The translations under genes were made by a program, and so were the position numbers. Below, piece after piece: positions 1 to 29,531 of a stretch of DNA of 64,000 nt (positions are counted from its first letter, which is position 1; every line of letters begins with the position of its first letter). The DNA comes from a virus (Duplodnaviria; Heunggongvirae; Uroviricota; Caudoviricetes), in the IMG/VR virus record IMGVR_UViG_3300037423_001636, positions 13,169 through 77,168 of that record, one strand, 5' to 3'. The notes beneath the pieces were generated by a model. That model was not told the origin of the DNA. It made no database searches and worked only from the letters and a program-made list of their open reading frames with translations.

Positions 1-2
1 TC

Positions 3-158
3 TCTTTCGGGCAGCTAATCGAATCAGTGGAGAGTCTTGCGTGGGATGGCCCATTCCCTAATCGCGACTTCTCCGCTCGCCTCATGAATCTGCCGGATGA
101 ATGGCTGGAACATGCGTTGAATCTAGCGGCAAAAGGGCCGATCAAACTCTCCAAATGA
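3..158 (+). CDS. partial hypothetical protein (3' end)
   Basis: Open frame from the window edge (...NLPDEWLEHALNLAAKGPIKLSK*), TGA overlapping the next ATG. Confidence 0.55.
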   Translation, partial: SFGQLIESVESLAWDGPFPNRDFSARLMNLPDEWLEHALNLAAKGPIKLSK

Positions 159-640
159 CATTATACCACTTCTGCTCTCGGCATCACCTTGACGACATCC
201 AACGAGAAGGTATCACCTTGGGCCGGCTGGTTTGGCGCTGGGAGCGGCCGAACCCCCCGGAATACGTAGGACCATTACAATGGCTGACCCGCAATCCAGA
301 TTTCAAGGCCCAAGGTTGGTGCTCGACTGCCGAACAAGGTTCTCGCCTCCCTTACTGTCGCAACGACTATCGGCTCACAATCGAGCTGCCTGAAGAGTTG
401 CGGGAAAATGCCATCGATTGGCGCGTCTACTGTGATATGCATCACCCCCCGTTGGCTGAAACTCTCAATGCCGCGCCCGGCTGGATGGATTGGGTGATCT
501 ATGATGGAATGATCCCGATAGAGTGTGTGAAAAAGATTGACAGACACCCGGAATTCAACACGCTAGCGCAATCAAATCCGCAGGCTGCGTGGGCTCTCAA
601 ACGAAGTGCCATCGCGCGGCTGAAGACATTAATATCATGA
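155..640 (+). CDS. hypothetical protein, possible ADP-ribosyltransferase-like fold
   Basis: ATGA overlap start; N-terminal LYHFCS..HL..I..EGI pattern resembles ART-like phage proteins. Confidence 0.55.
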   Translation: MTLYHFCSRHHLDDIQREGITLGRLVWRWERPNPPEYVGPLQWLTRNPDFKAQGWCSTAEQGSRLPYCRNDYRLTIELPEELRENAIDWRVYCDMHHPPLAETLNAAPGWMDWVIYDGMIPIECVKKIDRHPEFNTLAQSNPQAAWALKRSAIARLKTLIS

Positions 641-1293
641 ACACAATCACTCCCAATACCTCATTCGTTCCTACCGTCCGCCCCATCGGCGACCGTCCGC
701 TTAGCCTCGCTGGCCACTTGCGCCGAACGGCTCACCTAATCAGTAGCGGTTCCACTACGTATGAATGGGAAAACGCCAACCGCTGCAATTGCGGCCTCTT
801 GGCTCGCTCTATCACCGGACTAACGTCCAACGATTTCGCTGCTCTGCTCATGCCACTTATCGACGATCGGAGAAATCGCGGATGGGCTCACCCGCATATG
901 TGGAAGGGGCTCGCCGCGGATTTTTGCCCACTCAATCCGGGCGTGCCCGCTCCAGAACTGTTCAAGCAGCTCGCCGCGGCCGGCATGGAACCCGAGGACT
1001 TCAATCATCTCGAAGCGTTGAGCAATCCACAGATCAAATGCCAAATCCAGCTGCGACATAAAACCGTGACATGGGACGAGAAAGTGAAAACGGGCTGGTT
1101 CCGCAGTCGCACGGAGCAGCGCAGTCGCACGGAGCCAGTTCCAATTAAGCAGAATGACTCGGCTTATGTCGCAGAATACATGACAATTTGGGCGCGGGAA
1201 ATTGAGACGTATCGCGCCGCGCACGATGCGGCCAATACACCAAGCGACGCGCAAATGGAAGCGGTAGAAAACCGCCCGCTAGTCACCACCTGA
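637..1293 (+). CDS. hypothetical protein
   Basis: ATGA-coupled ORF with RCNCGLLA motif. Confidence 0.7.
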   Translation: MNTITPNTSFVPTVRPIGDRPLSLAGHLRRTAHLISSGSTTYEWENANRCNCGLLARSITGLTSNDFAALLMPLIDDRRNRGWAHPHMWKGLAADFCPLNPGVPAPELFKQLAAAGMEPEDFNHLEALSNPQIKCQIQLRHKTVTWDEKVKTGWFRSRTEQRSRTEPVPIKQNDSAYVAEYMTIWAREIETYRAAHDAANTPSDAQMEAVENRPLVTT

Positions 1294-1294
1294 T

Positions 1295-1624
1295 ATGAGC
1301 ACACATATAACAGCCGGCGATAAGGTCTGTTGTATCGACGACGGCTGGAATCGCCAAGCCAACCCGTTGGTTCATATGCTCCTGCAATCTGTTCAGCCCG
1401 CGCCGCCGACGAAGGATCAGGTTTATTGCGTGCGAGAGGTCTACACCAATCACGTCGGCACTCCATCTCTGCGACTGGTCGGCATCATATCTCCATCGGT
1501 GCCGGTTTTTGGAGAACTTGGCTGGCGCGCAGACAATTTTCGGCGAATTTGGACGAATGATGCGGAGATTCGTGCTACCGTCGTAAAGTCTGTCCCGCAG
1601 ACGATGGATCTGAAGGACGAATGA
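1295..1624 (+). CDS. hypothetical protein
   Basis: Abutting ORF, GDKVCCIDD. Confidence 0.7.
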   Translation: MSTHITAGDKVCCIDDGWNRQANPLVHMLLQSVQPAPPTKDQVYCVREVYTNHVGTPSLRLVGIISPSVPVFGELGWRADNFRRIWTNDAEIRATVVKSVPQTMDLKDE

Positions 1625-1851
1625 CGAAAACCGACCAGTTCGTTCGTACTCTACTGCTCAATGGGTTCCGTCCATATCGGCAAGGTAGAAAACGCGCGTT
1701 CGAGAAAAATGGGGACCGTATTCATACTAGCTTCACACTCCTCGGGGCTGGGTGGGTGCACGTCTACCAGCGGGAATATCCGTGTTCGGAAGGCTGGTCC
1801 ATCTACAACTGCCGCGTTAGCAAAGCGCAAGAGCTGATTAGGTGGTGCTGA
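1621..1851 (+). CDS. hypothetical protein
   Basis: ATGA-coupled ORF. Confidence 0.6.
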   Translation: MTKTDQFVRTLLLNGFRPYRQGRKRAFEKNGDRIHTSFTLLGAGWVHVYQREYPCSEGWSIYNCRVSKAQELIRWC

Positions 1852-2237
1852 TGCTTATGGACACTCCTCCAGACTGGGCTTATCGTGCCGCAGAAGAGAT
1901 TGTCTTCACCGGCACAGCAGACGATGACTATGCCGCTTCGATCATCGCTAGAGAGTGGCAGAAAGACACCCAAACAATCCGATGTGTTTTCTGCGGCATG
2001 GCATATCCACCCGGCACACCCGCTAGCCAACACGAATCCCTCAATGCTCACATTCGCATCTGCGAAAAACATCCTTTGAGAGCGGCCGAAGCTCGAATCA
2101 CGGCGCTGGAGAAAACGCTCAAGACTCTGCGCGACAACCCGTCTATGTGGAAGCGTGGCGGCGCTGGCGGCCAAGATCAGTATGCGGGCATGCCGCCGGG
2201 AATGCGGCTGATAGATGAGACTTTGAGGTCAAGCTAA
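1851..2237 (+). CDS. hypothetical zinc-finger-like protein
   Basis: CVFCG...HIRICEKHP motif. Confidence 0.65.
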   Translation: MLMDTPPDWAYRAAEEIVFTGTADDDYAASIIAREWQKDTQTIRCVFCGMAYPPGTPASQHESLNAHIRICEKHPLRAAEARITALEKTLKTLRDNPSMWKRGGAGGQDQYAGMPPGMRLIDETLRSS

Positions 2238-2241
2238 CTTT

Positions 2242-2457
2242 ATGAACAGTCCTGTCGCAATCTACATCGGCGGCTCTCACTGGCTCCGCAAGGGCGAGAA
2301 GGTCTTCATTCGATTCTTCAACGTAATCGGGCAAATTCCCCGCGGTTCACATCTCCCACCTTACGTCCCAGATACTACGGTCACGGCGGAAGCTCTGGCG
2401 GAAGCTGGGGTGCGCCTGCCGCCACTGGAAAGCCTGAAAGTAGGGGATTGCGTGTGA
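2242..2457 (+). CDS. hypothetical protein
   Basis: ORF in + strand gene string. Confidence 0.55.
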   Translation: MNSPVAIYIGGSHWLRKGEKVFIRFFNVIGQIPRGSHLPPYVPDTTVTAEALAEAGVRLPPLESLKVGDCV

Positions 2458-2540
2458 ATGTTTGGGCTGTGGGCTGGTTTGCCCATAATGAGCAAATCAC
2501 CCTATTGCCTCCAGCCTACTGATTCTGCTACGATTCACCC

Positions 2541-2894
2541 ATGCAACGAGCACCAACACAAGCGCAAACCACCCCGCACGCTACTTCCAACGGCTATCGC
2601 ATCCGTTTTCCAAAGGATAGTCAGTTGGCCACAATTCGCGGCTGGAACGGCAAATCATACGCCATGTCGGTTTCGATCTACGAAATCATTTCCGATGAGA
2701 CGAATTGGGGCTGCAAGATTCCCGGCTACAATGTGGGCGACAAGGTGAGGATGATTTCCGGAGTGGAGGAAAGTGAGCGTCTCGGGCATCATCCGACAAG
2801 AATGTGGCGGACTGTTTGCCGAATTGGAGCGGAGCATGCTGAGCACGTGGGGTTTCCCGTGACGGCACTGCGTCTGGTGAATGGGGGTGCGTGA
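2541..2894 (+). CDS. hypothetical protein
   Basis: ORF in gene string. Confidence 0.6.
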   Translation: MQRAPTQAQTTPHATSNGYRIRFPKDSQLATIRGWNGKSYAMSVSIYEIISDETNWGCKIPGYNVGDKVRMISGVEESERLGHHPTRMWRTVCRIGAEHAEHVGFPVTALRLVNGGA

Positions 2895-3421
2895 TGGCTG
2901 GCGGGGGCAATCAGACCACCTACGACGAGGGCACGCGCCGAGACGCTGAAGAAGTGCGCCGATTTGCGGCCCACATGGGCGTCGAACTCCCCGAACGCTT
3001 TGACGGCGACATGCACCCGGCCGCGCAGTGTATGAATGGGGCTCTGATGGATATCATTCAGCTGACGAATGCCCTTAGGAATATCGCGTTGACGCTGGGC
3101 GTAGATGACTACGAAAAGGCGCGAATGGTGGTTGAATCGGCTTTGGCCAGTCCATCAATCCTTCAACCTGCCGAAGCAGGCAATCTCTCCGTGAATACGC
3201 CCACAAATTCCTCTTCACTCGGCATCACTATCCCGGACAACGATCCCCGACCCCAGAAGCACGGCGGCCTGCGGCCAATCAAAGGATTGAAGCCCCGCTG
3301 CATAGACCCTTCCCATGAGCCACCCACACACATAGTGATCCCGCCCGGCTATGAATACGAGCATGTGTGTCCGAGCTGTGGATTTACGATCGTTCTGTGG
3401 GGGCACGATGTCACCTTGTAA
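2894..3421 (+). CDS. hypothetical protein with C-terminal CPSCG
   Basis: TGATG-coupled ORF. Confidence 0.6.
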   Translation: MAGGGNQTTYDEGTRRDAEEVRRFAAHMGVELPERFDGDMHPAAQCMNGALMDIIQLTNALRNIALTLGVDDYEKARMVVESALASPSILQPAEAGNLSVNTPTNSSSLGITIPDNDPRPQKHGGLRPIKGLKPRCIDPSHEPPTHIVIPPGYEYEHVCPSCGFTIVLWGHDVTL

Positions 3422-3443
3422 GGCTTGATTTCTGTTTTTTTAC

Positions 3444-3580
3444 GCTCTTGTATCACAAAACGGTCTAGGGGAATCTGTTCCGGCCGGATGGTCCTCCCTG
3501 AGCAGTCCACTGCTGCGTATAGTGGGGCGCGTGACCAGCGCAGTGATTTCGCAAGGTTCGAGCCCTCGCCAAGAGCACCA
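3444..3580 (+). tRNA. tRNA-Arg(CCG)-like RNA with about 60-nt expanded variable arm
   Basis: Acceptor GCTCTTG/CAAGAGC+ACCA; anticodon arm ATCTG-TTCCGGC-CGGAT; T-loop GGTTCGAGCCC; weak D-stem. Confidence 0.65.
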
Positions 3581-3689
3581 ATTTCTTTAACATTCTCTCT
3601 TGACTGGCGACACAATCTGTGCTCTATTCGCCTCCAACAGGTAGGCGCATGACCGTTCCGCCACTCAAACTAGATTCAGCTCTTTTACA

Positions 3690-3944
3690 GGAGTAAGTTT
3701 CAACTGTATTGCATAAGCGATACCGTTGGAGCGAAGCTCCAACAACAATTCCAGCCTTTGATCCGTGCGAAAAATCTGTGGTCGTAGCCCAGTACCGCAC
3801 GGGGAGGCTTACGAATGGACGGCGGTAGCGAATTGACCTTTCTATGGGCTAAACGACAGGTCAATAGGGAGCCGCACTGGAGAGTAGCACCATCCCAGTT
3901 TCTGACCACACATACGCCCGTGGCACGTCCAATCACTTTTTTTT
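3690..3944 (+). ncRNA. large structured non-coding RNA (unassigned)
   Basis: Many perfect helices plus loop-loop complementarity 3781-3791/3845-3857; ends in T8; 5' end uncertain. Confidence 0.6.
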
Positions 3945-3965
3945 GCCGCCCTCGGGTGCGAAAGC

Positions 3966-4051
3966 GAGCGGTGGGGGAATACGAGCGTCGGGAGAACCGA
4001 CGACGAGGCGCGACTGTGTGCCTGTTTCGAACACTCTCACCGCTCTTTTTT
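3966..4051 (+). ncRNA. structured RNA closed by a 12-bp helix and U-tract
   Basis: GAGCGGTGGGGG/CTCTCACCGCTC with inner CGTCGG/CCGACG hairpin, then T6. Confidence 0.45.
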
Positions 4052-4087
4052 GACAAATCCATTTCCTCCAGTCATGGTTGACCTACA

Positions 4088-4175
4088 GGCTCTTCAAGGA
4101 CCGTTTGTGACTAAACGGTCTCTGGCAAGCTGGACCGGAGCCGTCCTCACACGAGGACCAGCCATGGCTGGGGGA
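4088..4175 (+). ncRNA. small multi-hairpin RNA downstream of TTGACA (4050)
   Basis: GACCGTTT/AAACGGTC, GTCCTC/GAGGAC and CCAGC/GCTGG hairpins. Confidence 0.4.
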
Positions 4176-4188
4176 TTTCTTTGCGGTA

Positions 4189-4233
4189 TAGGGAAAACTC
4201 CCCATTGACGAGCCTCTGCTAGTCTGGTAGAGT
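4189..4233 (+). promoter_or_regulatory. palindrome + promoter element 1
   Basis: TAGGG-N6-CCCCA TTGACG N17 TAGAGT. Confidence 0.8.
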
Positions 4234-4242
4234 GTGCGTCTT

Positions 4243-4716
4243 ATGAATCCAGCCGCCTACATTCCGCTCACCCAATGCGTCAAGGGCAAAATCTATCGGC
4301 TTAATAGCCGCAATCTGGAGATCGGCGTGTATGACGGCAAAGAGGGATTCATCGGAATCCGGGAGAAGTTCGGCCGTTTCTATCTCTTCACGGAATATCA
4401 CCACGATCAGGGGCCGTCGGTTGGCACGGTCTATCCACTGGAGGTTATTGGCGAATTGCCAGCGACAATTGCCGTCAACGATAGAGAGATCCACGCATGG
4501 GGTGACGGTTGGTTCTGGGATATGGAGCTAGAAATCTGGAAGCCCATAGCTCGCCGCGATCTGAAAGAGGGTGAGGCTCAGCATGGAACGCGACAGGGAT
4601 TTGTGGACGAATTTGCCGGAACCAACACTCGGCTTGGCGACAATCAGTGGCCCTGTTTGCGCCGAAACGAGGCGCTATTCGACTACCTCAAAACGCTGGA
4701 GGCGCTTGGAGAATGA
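4243..4716 (+). CDS. hypothetical protein
   Basis: ATG 9 nt after -10; SRNL..GVYDG..GFIGIREKFG. Confidence 0.7.
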   Translation: MNPAAYIPLTQCVKGKIYRLNSRNLEIGVYDGKEGFIGIREKFGRFYLFTEYHHDQGPSVGTVYPLEVIGELPATIAVNDREIHAWGDGWFWDMELEIWKPIARRDLKEGEAQHGTRQGFVDEFAGTNTRLGDNQWPCLRRNEALFDYLKTLEALGE

Positions 4717-5675
4717 GTGAGCCCGCCACCAAGACCATCTGTATCGAGCGTCCTTCTTTCCTATCTCAAATGAGCCGGGAAACGAACTATCGCTACGAAG
4801 ACTTCGATATCTCCAAAGCCTCGCCACACATCCTCCGGGAGACGGTCCGCCATTGTCAGGAAGAATCTCTCGGCGGCCCCACCGCAATTGGGAACTACTT
4901 GAAGGCATCGCAGTGTCTGGACGGAGCTATTCTAGCCGTGGACCAGCGAGTGTCCCGAGACCTCGAAATCTCAACGGTAGCGGGCGATTTATCTCGACTC
5001 GCATTCCCGGCGGCCCAAATGGAGGTGCGATTCGCCGATCCTGATTTGCCCGCCATCCTGCTATGTCGAATCGACAACACTTCCGTGATTCACAAGGGAA
5101 TGAAGATGGAGGACGGAATGACTTTAGCGAACAAGGGAATCCTGTTCAGCGCCGACACGAAAAGCGGAGCCACTCTTACTCTTGCCCTCCCCGACACTCT
5201 GTGGCCGCAATATGTGAGCGGGCAATGGAGCGAGGACATGCGGCCAAAAATCTCTCAGGATATGGTCATGGAGGATGAAGAAGCGGCATGCATGAAATAT
5301 CTCGCGCTGCTCGCGGTAAAAGTGCTCGCTTACGCCAGCTGCTCTCACCTTGCGCCGACTCTGGTGACGACGAAAGCAGAGAAGAAAGCGGCGGGGATTC
5401 ATCCGAAGCACGTATTGCCACATCAGAAGACGTTTGTGGTGCGTTACTTGCCCCATGTGATTCGAGAAAAGCCGGAAATCGCCGAAGCACATGAGCCATC
5501 AGGTAAAACGCGCCGCTTCATGGGTCGCGCCGGCCGGGTCGTGTTCTATGAGCATGAGAGGTATACCCGAATGAGAGGGGTTTGGCAGTGGCAAGCGCCG
5601 ATTGCTCCCCCCGACGGCGTTCGCATCATTTACCGCGTGCGGAAAGCAGCGGGCACTCCAGTTAACCATCCATGA
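4713..5675 (+). CDS. hypothetical protein (320 aa)
   Basis: Long ATGA-coupled ORF. Confidence 0.75.
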   Translation: MSEPATKTICIERPSFLSQMSRETNYRYEDFDISKASPHILRETVRHCQEESLGGPTAIGNYLKASQCLDGAILAVDQRVSRDLEISTVAGDLSRLAFPAAQMEVRFADPDLPAILLCRIDNTSVIHKGMKMEDGMTLANKGILFSADTKSGATLTLALPDTLWPQYVSGQWSEDMRPKISQDMVMEDEEAACMKYLALLAVKVLAYASCSHLAPTLVTTKAEKKAAGIHPKHVLPHQKTFVVRYLPHVIREKPEIAEAHEPSGKTRRFMGRAGRVVFYEHERYTRMRGVWQWQAPIAPPDGVRIIYRVRKAAGTPVNHP

Positions 5676-5887
5676 TCATAGACGACAATATCCCTCCACT
5701 CCTTGTCACTCAGCTCAGACTCGACGTTCAGGCCGCCGATGACGCTATCATCAGAATGGAGCAGGCTGTCCATCCGAATCATTTCAACCGCGTGGAAGAG
5801 CTGCGAACGGTGCGGATTCTCTTGGCCGGCGTGCTGCACAGACTGGAGAAGGACATCGTGGCGTCTGCTGACCCGAAGGCAGAATAG
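5672..5887 (+). CDS. hypothetical protein
   Basis: ATGA-coupled; stop codon is the first triplet of the next element. Confidence 0.6.
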   Translation: MIIDDNIPPLLVTQLRLDVQAADDAIIRMEQAVHPNHFNRVEELRTVRILLAGVLHRLEKDIVASADPKAE

Positions 5888-5930
5888 GGAGTTGTCCTCA
5901 TTGTGCTTTCGCCCCGCACTCTGCTATAGT
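5885..5930 (+). promoter_or_regulatory. palindrome + promoter element 2
   Basis: TAGGG-N6-CCTCA TTGTGC N18 TATAGT. Confidence 0.8.
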
Positions 5931-5939
5931 TTTACCGCT

Positions 5940-6302
5940 ATGACAACGATATTCAACCCAGAGAAAAAAGATAAGCTCACTTACGGCGAATGTCTCGGCC
6001 CCGCCATGAAGATCACTGACCCGGCTGATGCGACGCAGTATCTCAAAGCATATGCATTCATTCAGGTCGCGTTGGATCGTGGCGAAGGCAATAGGGGCGG
6101 CAAGACCGCGGAACAAATTGCCAAGAGCAATCTGGGCTACTATGCTGGCTATTACGACAACGAGACTCGTGAGCGCGTTGAAAGACTGTTCAATTGCAAT
6201 CATCCGATCTTTGGGGCAATCGCGGAGAAAGCGCCGCCAACTCCAGAAGAGGCGTTTGAAATGGGGCGGAAAATGGGCGCGGCGAGGAAGCGGTCACGCT
6301 GA
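5940..6302 (+). CDS. hypothetical protein
   Basis: ATG 9 nt after -10; SNLGYYAGYY motif. Confidence 0.7.
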   Translation: MTTIFNPEKKDKLTYGECLGPAMKITDPADATQYLKAYAFIQVALDRGEGNRGGKTAEQIAKSNLGYYAGYYDNETRERVERLFNCNHPIFGAIAEKAPPTPEEAFEMGRKMGAARKRSR

Positions 6303-6344
6303 GGTATCTCCCTTATTGTGTTTGTCCCTCAATTCTGCTACATT
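6300..6344 (+). promoter_or_regulatory. palindrome + promoter element 3
   Basis: TGAGG-N6-CCTTA TTGTGT N17 TACATT. Confidence 0.8.
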
Positions 6345-6353
6345 CACACCACC

Positions 6354-7046
6354 ATGCCAAATCACGTATACTCCACCCTCCGTATCCGCGGCCCGCAAGC
6401 CGACATCGCTCGTCTCATCAAGACCGCTACCGTCAAAGCAGAAAAACACGGCAAGATGGAAAAGTTCATCAAATTCGACCGCCTGTTTCCGTGCCCCTGT
6501 GAGCTGTTTGAAGTTACTTCCCCAGTTCGAATCGTGTCTGAAGAAGAGTTCCAAAAGCAAAAGACTGAACTGGCCGAGCGTAAAGCCCGGATCGCGGCGG
6601 GGGAAGAGAAAGAGTCGCTGTTTGGCATGTCACTTTCCATCTCTTCGTCATATCAAAAGGAACTGATCCGCCGTTTCGGTGTGGATAATTGGTATGACTG
6701 GGCGATCAAGAACTGGGGCACCAAATGGGGTACTTATGATGTCGCTCAGAGGGAATCCAAGACGGGCGAAGCCAATTTCTCCTTTCAAACCGCTTGGAGT
6801 CCCGCGGAGGGATTGTGGATCAAGGTTAGTGCCGATTTCCCCACACTGGAATTCTTCACTGAGTTCGCAGATGAAGGTGGCGGCTTTGTCGGCACACAGA
6901 CGTTCAAGGAGGGCGAAAAGAGCGAGGACAGCGATCCTGATTGGAGTTCTCCGGAAGGCATCCAAATCCGCAAGAATGTCGGCCAATGGAGCGACGAGGA
7001 AGAGGATGAAGACGAAGAGTCTGAAACCAAGGACGCCAATGTTTAG
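6354..7046 (+). CDS. DUF1281/YubB (Api92-like) ferredoxin-like fold protein
   Basis: MPNH.., WYDW...NWGTKW, F.TAWSP, DEGGGFVG motifs. Confidence 0.8.
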   Translation: MPNHVYSTLRIRGPQADIARLIKTATVKAEKHGKMEKFIKFDRLFPCPCELFEVTSPVRIVSEEEFQKQKTELAERKARIAAGEEKESLFGMSLSISSSYQKELIRRFGVDNWYDWAIKNWGTKWGTYDVAQRESKTGEANFSFQTAWSPAEGLWIKVSADFPTLEFFTEFADEGGGFVGTQTFKEGEKSEDSDPDWSSPEGIQIRKNVGQWSDEEEDEDEESETKDANV

Positions 7047-16559: not shown

Positions 16560-16913
16560 ATGAAGACGAATCTCATTATGTCTGCGAAATCGGCGGCGGC
16601 GTTGATCGATGAGCTAATAATCGCCGCTCCGGAAATTCGTGGGGCGGGTATCTGCCGCAAGCTGCTCGCGCGCTTGGATAGATTTGACGACCGCAAGCTG
16701 AAGGCAGCTATTGCCACTACAAGCCGATTAGAACGAAGCTCTCGGCAGAAAAGAAACGTGATGCACTACACGACACCAACCACAGACGACAACATAGACC
16801 AGCGGGTGGAAGAGTGGCACGCGATCATCCCGAGCACCGTGCCGCTCCACGAGTGGCTAGGACTGACATGGGAACAATACGCCCGCTGGGGCGAGACGAA
16901 CAAGCTGGGTTGA
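16560..16913 (+). CDS. hypothetical protein, probable fusion; C-terminal WH..LHEWLGLTWEQY..W unit
   Basis: Internal linker at 16731, second ATG at 16761. Confidence 0.55.
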   Translation: MKTNLIMSAKSAAALIDELIIAAPEIRGAGICRKLLARLDRFDDRKLKAAIATTSRLERSSRQKRNVMHYTTPTTDDNIDQRVEEWHAIIPSTVPLHEWLGLTWEQYARWGETNKLG

Positions 16914-16922
16914 ACGAAAACG

Positions 16923-17327
16923 ATGAGCGACCACAACGAGCGCGCCTGCACCTACTGCGGAAGTTTCCTGCACCATGAATCTGCGTGCCCACAGCGCGAA
17001 AAATCTATGAGCAACACACCCCGCACTGATGCAGTTTACGCGAAGGTTCTCGAATCAAACGAGGGCCACGCTGACGACCTAATTACTCTGGTTAACTTCA
17101 CTCGCGGCCTTGAGCGCGAGCTGACGGCGCAAATCGAAGGGCACAAGCTGACGGCAAAAGAGGCGTCGGAAGCCGCCGTGCTGCGCGCCGCTGATCGCAA
17201 ACTACGCGCCGCCTTGGAGGACGCGGCAAAGAGCTGGGAAAAGGAAGCCGCCGACACCAACTGGAACGGCCACATCCGCTCCACCTACGACTCGTGCGCG
17301 AAAGACCTTCGCGAATTGCTACGCTGA
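16923..17327 (+). CDS. hypothetical protein (MSNTPRTDA-type)
   Basis: Internal second start at 17007. Confidence 0.6.
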   Translation: MSDHNERACTYCGSFLHHESACPQREKSMSNTPRTDAVYAKVLESNEGHADDLITLVNFTRGLERELTAQIEGHKLTAKEASEAAVLRAADRKLRAALEDAAKSWEKEAADTNWNGHIRSTYDSCAKDLRELLR

Positions 17328-23204: not shown

Positions 23205-23249
23205 TGAGGTATACACCTCATAGACTCTGCGCCGAAAATCTGCTAGAGT
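23205..23249 (+). promoter_or_regulatory. palindrome + promoter element 12
   Basis: TGAGG-N6-CCTCA TAGACT N17 TAGAGT. Confidence 0.85.
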
Positions 23250-29104: not shown

Positions 29105-29347
29105 GCGCGATTAGCTCAATTGGTTCCTGTCGGCGCTCCGCAAGGAGATACGGCAGGGGTGATAACCGACGAAGACTAGACGAGAGACCCCGATGCTAAG
29201 TCTCCATTGCAAGGGATACGACCCGGAGGGCACTCAGTCTAGCTAGTAAGCGGCGACTACCTAGAGCGTCATCGGTGGAGCGATCCACCATACACGATGA
29301 AGGTTGCCACAGGTCTGAAACGACTGGTTCGAGTCCGGCATCGCGCA
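29105..29347 (+). ncRNA. tRNA-Val(TAC)-like scaffold with three structured insertions (243 nt)
   Basis: GCGCGAT/ATCGCGC acceptor, TAGCTCAATTGGT..AGAGC D-arm, TCATC/GATGA stem with TACAC, GGTTCGAGTCC T-loop. Confidence 0.7.
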
Positions 29348-29361
29348 ATCCTTTTTTTTAT

Positions 29362-29457: not shown

Positions 29458-29531
29458 GCGGGGATAGCTCAATTGGTAGAGCACGTCTAAACATGGCGTG
29501 GATAGAGGTTCGAATCCTTTTCCCTGCACCA
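29458..29531 (+). tRNA. tRNA with atypical anticodon arm (identity undetermined)
   Basis: GCGGGGA/TCCCTGC+ACCA; canonical D and T arms; loop TAAACAT lacks U33. Confidence 0.75.

Follow-up and report, generated by a model that had tools for sequence, protein, structure and literature searches.

Bacteriophage T4 makes two stable RNAs, C and D (species 1 and 2), which are small (~120-140 nt), folded, encoded in the tRNA cluster and matured together with the tRNAs, and to our knowledge no loop-loop lock has been described in either of them. Pairing between terminal loops is familiar from other RNAs of modest size: the loops of phi29 pRNA pair between molecules, and the arms of the purine and lysine riboswitches kiss within one molecule. 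Large, ornate RNAs of phages and prophages are ROOL (~580 nt) and GOLLD (>800 nt), which are often found beside tRNA genes (PMC12286853), and in which some of the loop pairings that were first read as tertiary contacts proved to be intermolecular (Kretsch et al. 2025, PMC12286853). The manA motif (RF01745; Weinberg et al. 2010, PMC2864571), a multi-stem phage RNA of less than 200 nt with a pseudoknot, is likewise described as cage-forming (bioRxiv 10.64898/2026.07.01.735769). Finally, bacteria and phages encode Y RNAs (YrlA and YrlB), modular folded RNAs, some with tRNA-like parts, that lie within ~4 kb of the gene for the Ro60-like protein, rsr, and on the same strand; further Y RNAs that have escaped detection are expected to exist (Chen et al. 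2014, PMC4201824).

Here we analyse an element, E2, that invites comparison with all of these. It occupies positions 3690-3944 of the window, by which we mean the whole 64,000-nt stretch of DNA that was analysed (bases 13169-77168 of the record of a soil jumbo phage that is 205,168 bp long, carries direct terminal repeats and has a G+C content of 52.5%); in genome coordinates E2 is 16858-17112. The genes near E2 are all on the + strand and tightly packed, and among them E2 sits in a gene-free island of 800 nt, bounded by an orphan gene of 175 aa, which ends at 3421, and by a 157-aa gene whose ATG is at 4243. The island is made up of four folded modules, E1 to E4, and is flanked by early-type genes; E2, the second module in order, begins 100 nt past the tRNA-like gene E1, and the next gene lies 300 nt from it, behind two modules and a promoter of its own. 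A search of 5.8 billion proteins brought up no homologue of the upstream gene; the best homologue of the downstream gene is 58% identical and the neighbourhoods of its homologues are not syntenic. No informative family was found for either neighbour or for any gene within 4 kb and, as far as such sequence searches can tell, no neighbouring gene ties E2 to a function. The nearest DNA polymerase is 42% identical to that of the phage, and a pattern scan of IMG/VR found no relative of its terminase; in these comparisons the phage appears isolated, without close relatives. Its host is probably a member of the Acidobacteriaceae, since the nearest cellular relatives of a Ro60-like protein that it encodes (46-50% identity) are those of Terracidiphilus and Acidicapsa.

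How does this locus compare with the systems described so far? Like ROOL and GOLLD, E2 is phage-encoded, has a predicted multi-stem fold with candidate kissing loops and no known associated protein, and lies near a tRNA-type gene, here directly beside one that is tRNA-like; it also resembles the ornate phage RNAs in having no coding capacity, a point to which we return below. Unlike ROOL and GOLLD it is short (~250-310 nt as an RNA), matches nothing in Rfam and has no relatives, and the conservation with covariation across genomes that marks the ornate phage RNAs was not found for E2 in the collections searched. With manA it shares a multi-stem fold in a phage and a candidate loop pairing, but it is without the conserved manA blocks and gives no manA match. 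We note that a manA-like match does exist elsewhere in this phage, within its tRNA cluster at genome 161007-161271 (+), where it scores 24.7 bits (local E 1.5e-4; gathering score 55.2) and keeps several of the conserved blocks; on the strength of this sub-threshold match we take the phage to carry ornate RNAs among its tRNAs. The likeness to the T4 RNAs C and D is by description alone, E2 being a folded RNA candidate alongside a phage tRNA-type gene. Two helical arms with complementary terminal loops are common to E2, phi29 pRNA and the purine and lysine riboswitches, but E2, unlike these, matches nothing in Rfam, does not lie in a packaging-gene context and has no regulated ORF behind it.

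Our analysis of the secondary structure indicates that the architecture first read by eye from the letters is sound. RNAfold independently yields two small 5' hairpins, a hairpin H2 and a four-way junction with arms P4/P4b, P5 and P6 (Table 1); every helix that the sequence-only reading had listed is present where it had been placed, as is the run of eight T residues after the fold. Its description of the RNA as large does not hold, however, since E2 at 255 nt is mid-sized, unlike GOLLD or ROOL. The helices have pair probabilities of 0.84-1.0 whether E2 is folded in a context of 325, 461 or 801 nt, with the exception of the second 5' hairpin, 3725-43, which competes at a probability of 0.6 with an alternative pairing, 3697-3704/3725-32, at 0.4. 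The connectors of the cloverleaf junction measure 0, 0, 3-6 and 0 nt, giving a tRNA-like topology in which P3 is continuous with P6, and P4 with P5. We rejected the idea that E2 is itself a tRNA or tmRNA: ARAGORN is silent in the island, as are the Rfam tRNA and tmRNA models, and the cloverleaf loops of 18, 14 and 10 nt are without UUCGA or CCA. The tetranucleotide CGAA occurs five times in the 255 nt, where ~1 occurrence is expected (GCGAAG at 3731, GCGAAA at 3767, ACGAAU at 3811 and GCGAAU at 3828, with GCGAAAG just downstream at 3957).

Table 1. Features of E2 and of the island around it, in window coordinates (pairing strands are separated by a slash).
Feature	Position	Strand	Sequence or elements	Remarks
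E1, tRNA-like gene	3444-3591	+	acceptor stem of 7 bp, GCUCUUG/CAAGAGC; T-loop-like GGUUCGAGCC; encoded ACCA	~148 nt
Overlapping alternative promoter	3587-3616	+	TTAACA-18-CACAAT	flagged by scan
Candidate sigma-70-type promoter	3600-3628	+	TTGACT (3600-05), 17-nt spacer ending TGc, TCTATT (3623-28)	read from sequence
5' hairpin one	3706-12/3717-23	+	GUAUUGC/GCGAUAC	pair probability 1.0
5' hairpin two	3725-32/3736-43	+	GTTGGAGC/GCTCCAAC, i.e. GUUGGAGC-GAA-GCUCCAAC	
CA-rich linker	3741-3752	+	AACAACAAUUCC	single-stranded in every fold
Hairpin H2	3753-3809	+	stems of 6 bp (3753-58/3804-09) and 8 bp (3762-69/3796-3803)	pair probability 0.96-0.98
H2 inner stem	3763-69/3796-3802	+	CCGTGCG/CGCACGG	
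H2 bulge and loop A	3770-95 (loop A)	+	UGA bulge; 26-nt loop A	5' side of the loop A-rich
Loop A segment	3781-3791	+	GUCGUAGCCCA	kissing partner one
Cloverleaf domain	3813-3934	+		pair probabilities 0.84-1.0
P3, closing stem	3813-14 and 3816-21 with 3926-31 and 3933-34	+	TGGACG/CGTCCA at 3816-21/3926-31	closes four-way junction
P4/P4b arm	3822-75	+	symmetric AGCGA/AGGGA internal loop; 18-nt loop B	
P4	3822-26/3871-75	+	GCGGT/GCCGC	
P4b	3832-39/3858-65	+	ATTGACCT/AGGTCAAT	
Loop B segment	3845-51 and 3854-57	+	UGGGCUA(AA)CGAC	kissing partner two; CGAC abuts 3' strand of P4b
P5 arm	3876-99	+	ACTGG/CCAGT at 3876-80/3895-99	
P6 arm	3903-25	+	CCAC/GTGG at 3906-09/3920-23	
U8 tract	3937-3944	+	U8	2 nt past closing stem
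E3	3945-4050	+	12-bp stem around two hairpins, then U6 (4044-49)	z -3.4
E4	4060-4182	+	17-bp stem around two hairpins, then UUUCUUU (4176-82)	z -4.7; 4001-4200, z -6.1
Promoter of the next gene	4205-4233	+	TTGACG-17-TAGAGT with the recurrent CTGCTAG motif of the phage	gene ATG at 4243

The stability of this fold is well beyond what its composition would give. The + strand of 3690-3944 has a minimum free energy of -95.9 kcal/mol, compared with -70.5+-4.8 kcal/mol for 200 dinucleotide shuffles, which corresponds to z -5.3 with none of the 200 as good, while the minus strand reaches only z -2.2. In a sliding scan over positions 1-6400 of the window, coding DNA forms a background of z 0+-1.4 from which only 3601-4200 departs (-4.6, -6.1), and the whole island, 3440-4240, gives z -6.6. 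Moreover, the G-U pairs at the helix ends 3758-3804, 3762-3803 and 3826-3871 are possible on the + strand only; these helix ends, the U8 tract and the orientation of the genes all indicate the + strand. We also considered that the signal might belong to the DNA, as in an origin or a pac site, and rejected this, since the island holds no iterons or tandem repeats (its repeats are short and at chance level) and the fold signal favours the + strand.

It had also been noted that the terminal loop of H2 is complementary to that of the P4 arm, and this complementarity is real: it comprises 7 + 4 bp, 11 bp in all with the AA of loop B bulged, and has a duplex energy of -15.8 kcal/mol. When the loops were shuffled, 2 of 2000 trials equalled this energy, and among the 15 loop pairs of E2 it is the sole outlier. 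Whole sequences that were shuffled and refolded, with the best hairpin-loop pair taken from each, reached the same score once in 400, and real 255-nt windows of the phage did so in 2 of 510 cases, both with much larger loops. Complementarity of this quality is suggestive, being uncommon (~0.3-0.4% of the nulls) and not decisive, and a scan of 64 kb would be expected to turn up roughly one such case by chance; what gives the kissing pair weight is its place within the region's strongest fold outlier. The modelled geometry would favour an intramolecular contact: the P4 arm, with 13 bp and a 5x5 internal loop, is matched in length to H2, which has 14 bp, and is its neighbour in the chain, so that the two loops can form an 11-bp helix. 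The ambiguity that arose for ROOL and GOLLD, where tertiary contacts turned out to join molecules, applies equally to this pair. A second possible pseudoknot, 3774-83/3904-13 (10 nt, 90%), was discarded as no better than several chance pairs in the island, and a comparison of the loops of E2 with those of E1, E3 and E4 gave no significant complementarity.

Is E2 a divergent member of something already described? It had been said to match no known family, and the Rfam check bears this out. With Rfam 15 at the gathering score nothing in the window is matched except a tRNA at 29458, and at E<=10 there are zero matches over 3300-4300. Within the reach of these models, the null result excludes detectable membership in GOLLD, ROOL, OLE, raiA, manA, tmRNA, RNase P and 6S, and likewise in the kissing-arm riboswitch classes and the self-cleaving ribozymes; nor was there any indication of self-cleavage in E2. 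For relatives outside Rfam we used a covariance model, R1, of the core 3750-3936 (187 positions, 46 pairs). In the phage genome R1 finds only itself, and blastn and nhmmer agree that there is no second copy. In 19 loci from other genomes it gave nothing credible (best E 3.2), in 8 related whole phage records, including those with the nearest polymerases, and in 155 Acidobacteriaceae genomes (4 + 151) it was negative, and at the loci around homologues of the downstream gene (<=58% identical) there was neither a match nor synteny. A blastn search of the island against 50,697 INPHARED phage records came back empty, and three exact or gapped DNA patterns retrieved nothing from viral (IMG/VR), genome and metagenome contigs. 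The only other assembly with the locus is a Logan contig that is 100% identical and adds no independent variation. No helix and no kissing pair shows covariation, because no relative was found. E2 is novel, in that nothing known matches it, and it is a singleton, not a class yet. Thus of the earlier suggestion of a new class there stands a structured + strand RNA outside every Rfam family, while the class itself is not established, no relatives having been found. We regard E2 as an orphan candidate of the kind "ornate phage RNA near tRNAs", a member of no known family and possibly of a new one.

The sequences on either side of E2 bear on how such an RNA might be made. The candidate promoter at 3600-28 has weak hexamers (4/6 at the -10) and was left unflagged by the scan rule; its predicted start is near 3636. 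Its layout of TGc followed by the hexamer resembles the recurrent ...CTGCTAGAGT promoters of this phage, which genome-wide follow a promoter-like motif of a palindrome, TAGAC/TTGAC, ~17 nt and (AAT)CTGCTAGAGT, as at window positions 23240, 35866, 38221, 38953 and 4215; CTGCTAGAG occurs exactly 11 times without mismatch, almost always upstream of a gene and on the + strand. At the other end, the U8 tract is, from its sequence and position, likely to be a terminator or 3'-end signal. Runs of seven or more T residues are rare, numbering 16 in the phage on both strands. The tail ...CAATC(A)C-T8 is common to E2 (T8 at 3937) and a 243-nt tRNA-like RNA (T8 at 29352), following the closing stem in both, and this common tail suggests that the two RNAs may acquire their 3' ends in the same way. 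Homology between E2 and the 243-nt RNA (29105-29347) was rejected, since there is no model match, the folds are different and the tail alone is in common. Among the neighbouring modules, E1 was missed by ARAGORN and Rfam, and its 3' end, ...GCACCAATT, is common to the tRNA genes of the phage; E3 and E4 have no Rfam match.

The presence of a Ro60-like protein raises the question of its RNA partners. This protein (502 aa; TROVE 64.8 bits, weak vWA_Ro60) is encoded at genome 163510-165018 (+), within a cluster of ~20 tRNA genes. In seven Acidobacteriaceae rsr loci we find one to three tandem YrlA-like units of ~150 nt in the 1 kb upstream of the gene, five of the loci having two or three. Besides T and D arms, these units have conserved ends, CCGGUGGCG...ACUUCG and ...UUGUUCCCCGG, of which CCGGUGG.G.AG...CUUCG and UUCCCCGG are invariant. 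In the five rsr loci scanned with Rfam no unit reaches the gathering score, and the annotation of this clade of Y RNAs looks incomplete. The phage has a comparable YrlA-like unit directly upstream of its own rsr, in genome 163050-163510; the unit combines the T arm GAGAGUUCGAACCUCUC with a D-arm-like block, and its ends are UUGGAGUGGCG...CGCCUGUUCCCUCCAA, followed by U5. It is accompanied by one or more short units of Y-like type (UUGCCGUAGCGAAG...UCGGCAA); the Rfam YrlA model at E<=1 reports none of these. When the 5' block of the host-type Y RNAs was used as a profile, three of the top five phage matches lay at 163058-163472, directly upstream of rsr. Judging from these sequence matches, the Y RNAs of the phage likely adjoin rsr, directly upstream of it.

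Could E2 be something other than a free-standing RNA, or an RNA of a known kind in disguise? For concreteness, consider the possibility that E2 is itself a Y RNA and a partner of the phage's TROVE and vWA protein. It would then be one of the undetected Y RNAs that are anticipated (PMC4201824), and its GGUAGCGAA (3824-32) does resemble CGUAGCGAAG of a small RNA-like element just upstream of rsr. The encoding of a Ro60-like protein is indeed a trait that this phage shares with the genomes in which YrlA and YrlB are found, but compared with those RNAs E2 is misplaced, 147 kb from rsr, and it is without the binding motif and without T and D arms: E2 contains no exact GNCGAAN0-1G or CCGGUGGCG... 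block (the nearest is UACGAAUG at 3809-16), and 3690-3944 holds no GGUUCGA T-loop and no D-arm sequence. Moreover, the 5'-block profile that matches the sites upstream of rsr has no match in the E1-E4 island, and the shared 8-mer, GUAGCGAA, is expected ~6 times per genome by chance. By location, motif and arms as described for Y RNAs (PMC4201824) we therefore reject E2 as a Y RNA, an assignment that would be very surprising. Equally hard to credit is a coding role, with a small basic protein as the product. The island shares its sequence with five ORFs of 52-120 aa, among them a 120-aa ORF on the minus strand that has no homologue and an 88-aa ORF at 3815-4081 (+). The sequence-only reading had seen no credible ORF here, which is right as to coding signal and homology, but overlooks that the 88-aa ORF is called as a gene in public data, on the 121-kb Logan SRR35148478 contig, which matches the DNA of the window with 100% identity. 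That call, and a good Shine-Dalgarno-like site (GGAGG at 3803-07, 7 nt before the ATG), speak for the protein. Against it, the codon-usage log-odds, trained on the 52 longest ORFs of the phage, give -0.042 for this ORF, which resembles out-of-frame ORFs (mean -0.056) and not most neighbouring genes (+0.09 to +0.18). An exhaustive HMMER search of 1.8 billion representatives returned only the ORF itself and one weak, repetitive match in several stretches of a 1168-aa protein. Furthermore, the ORF crosses two U-tracts and terminator-like stems, and both its Shine-Dalgarno sequence and its AUG lie hidden within helices H2 and P3. The gene call looks like an over-call on a structured RNA.

Two other explanations deserve more weight, though we hold each to be rather unlikely. 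One is that the island consists of elaborate intrinsic terminators placed one after another, or is an insulator: transcription arriving from the early genes upstream and from the tRNA-like gene would be stopped before it reaches the promoter at 4205, and the folds would count as hairpins for termination, not as an RNA with a function of its own. Three successive modules do end in a closing stem and a U-run (3937-44, 4044-49, 4176-82), and a phage-type promoter, 4205-33, comes next. However, a terminator needs just a short GC hairpin, and ~600 nt of multi-branched folds with an 11-bp loop complementarity would go unexplained; the terminator rule of the scan, moreover, left 3937-44 unflagged. 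The other explanation, to which we give about the same credence, is that both the fold and the loop complementarity arose by chance in a non-functional spacer or a decayed gene. E2 is a singleton sequence without conservation, its loop-loop score is reached by ~0.4% of windows, and its features were picked from 64 kb that had been searched, all of which speaks for a relic. Against it stand the z of -5.3, which none of 200 shuffles equalled and which compares with 0+-1.4 in the local background, the fact that three adjacent modules are all outliers, and the tight packing of the rest of the genome.

We therefore return to the reading that we favour, which our fold models make somewhat probable, namely that E2 is an independently folded, functional non-coding RNA of the + strand, ~250-310 nt long. 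Such an RNA would be transcribed from its own weak promoter, with a start near 3636, or would be released at a processing site after the tRNA-like gene, and it would end at the U8 tract, 3937-44. By analogy with the purine and lysine riboswitches, the kissing helix may lock H2 and the longest arm of the cloverleaf side by side. Alternatively, the same complementarity may join molecules, as it does in ROOL, GOLLD and phi29 pRNA. In either case we infer that E2 would work not as a cis regulator but as a stable, folded partner for a protein or for its own copies, and it could conceivably act as a protein decoy, a scaffold or a self-assembling particle.

The last of these roles suggests a more far-reaching possibility, for which we hold out little hope though somewhat more than for a Y RNA or a small protein: that E2 might be the founding member of a compact class of phage RNAs in which the loops 3781-91 and 3845-57 would join head-to-tail into an RNA-only oligomer, in the manner of ROOL, GOLLD and manA. 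For the present, the value of E2 is that of a well-defined candidate for probing, with a seed covariance model, rather than that of an established class; at ~250 nt it is also a small and tractable object for structural work. GOLLD, ROOL and manA are now known to build RNA-only cages, and a compact example would widen the group. If E2 did prove to be such an oligomer, it would be the product of an Acidobacteria-infecting jumbo phage that also carries Ro60 with Y RNAs, together with a manA-like RNA and tRNA look-alikes of expanded size, and this phage would then possess an unusually rich toolkit of structured RNAs.
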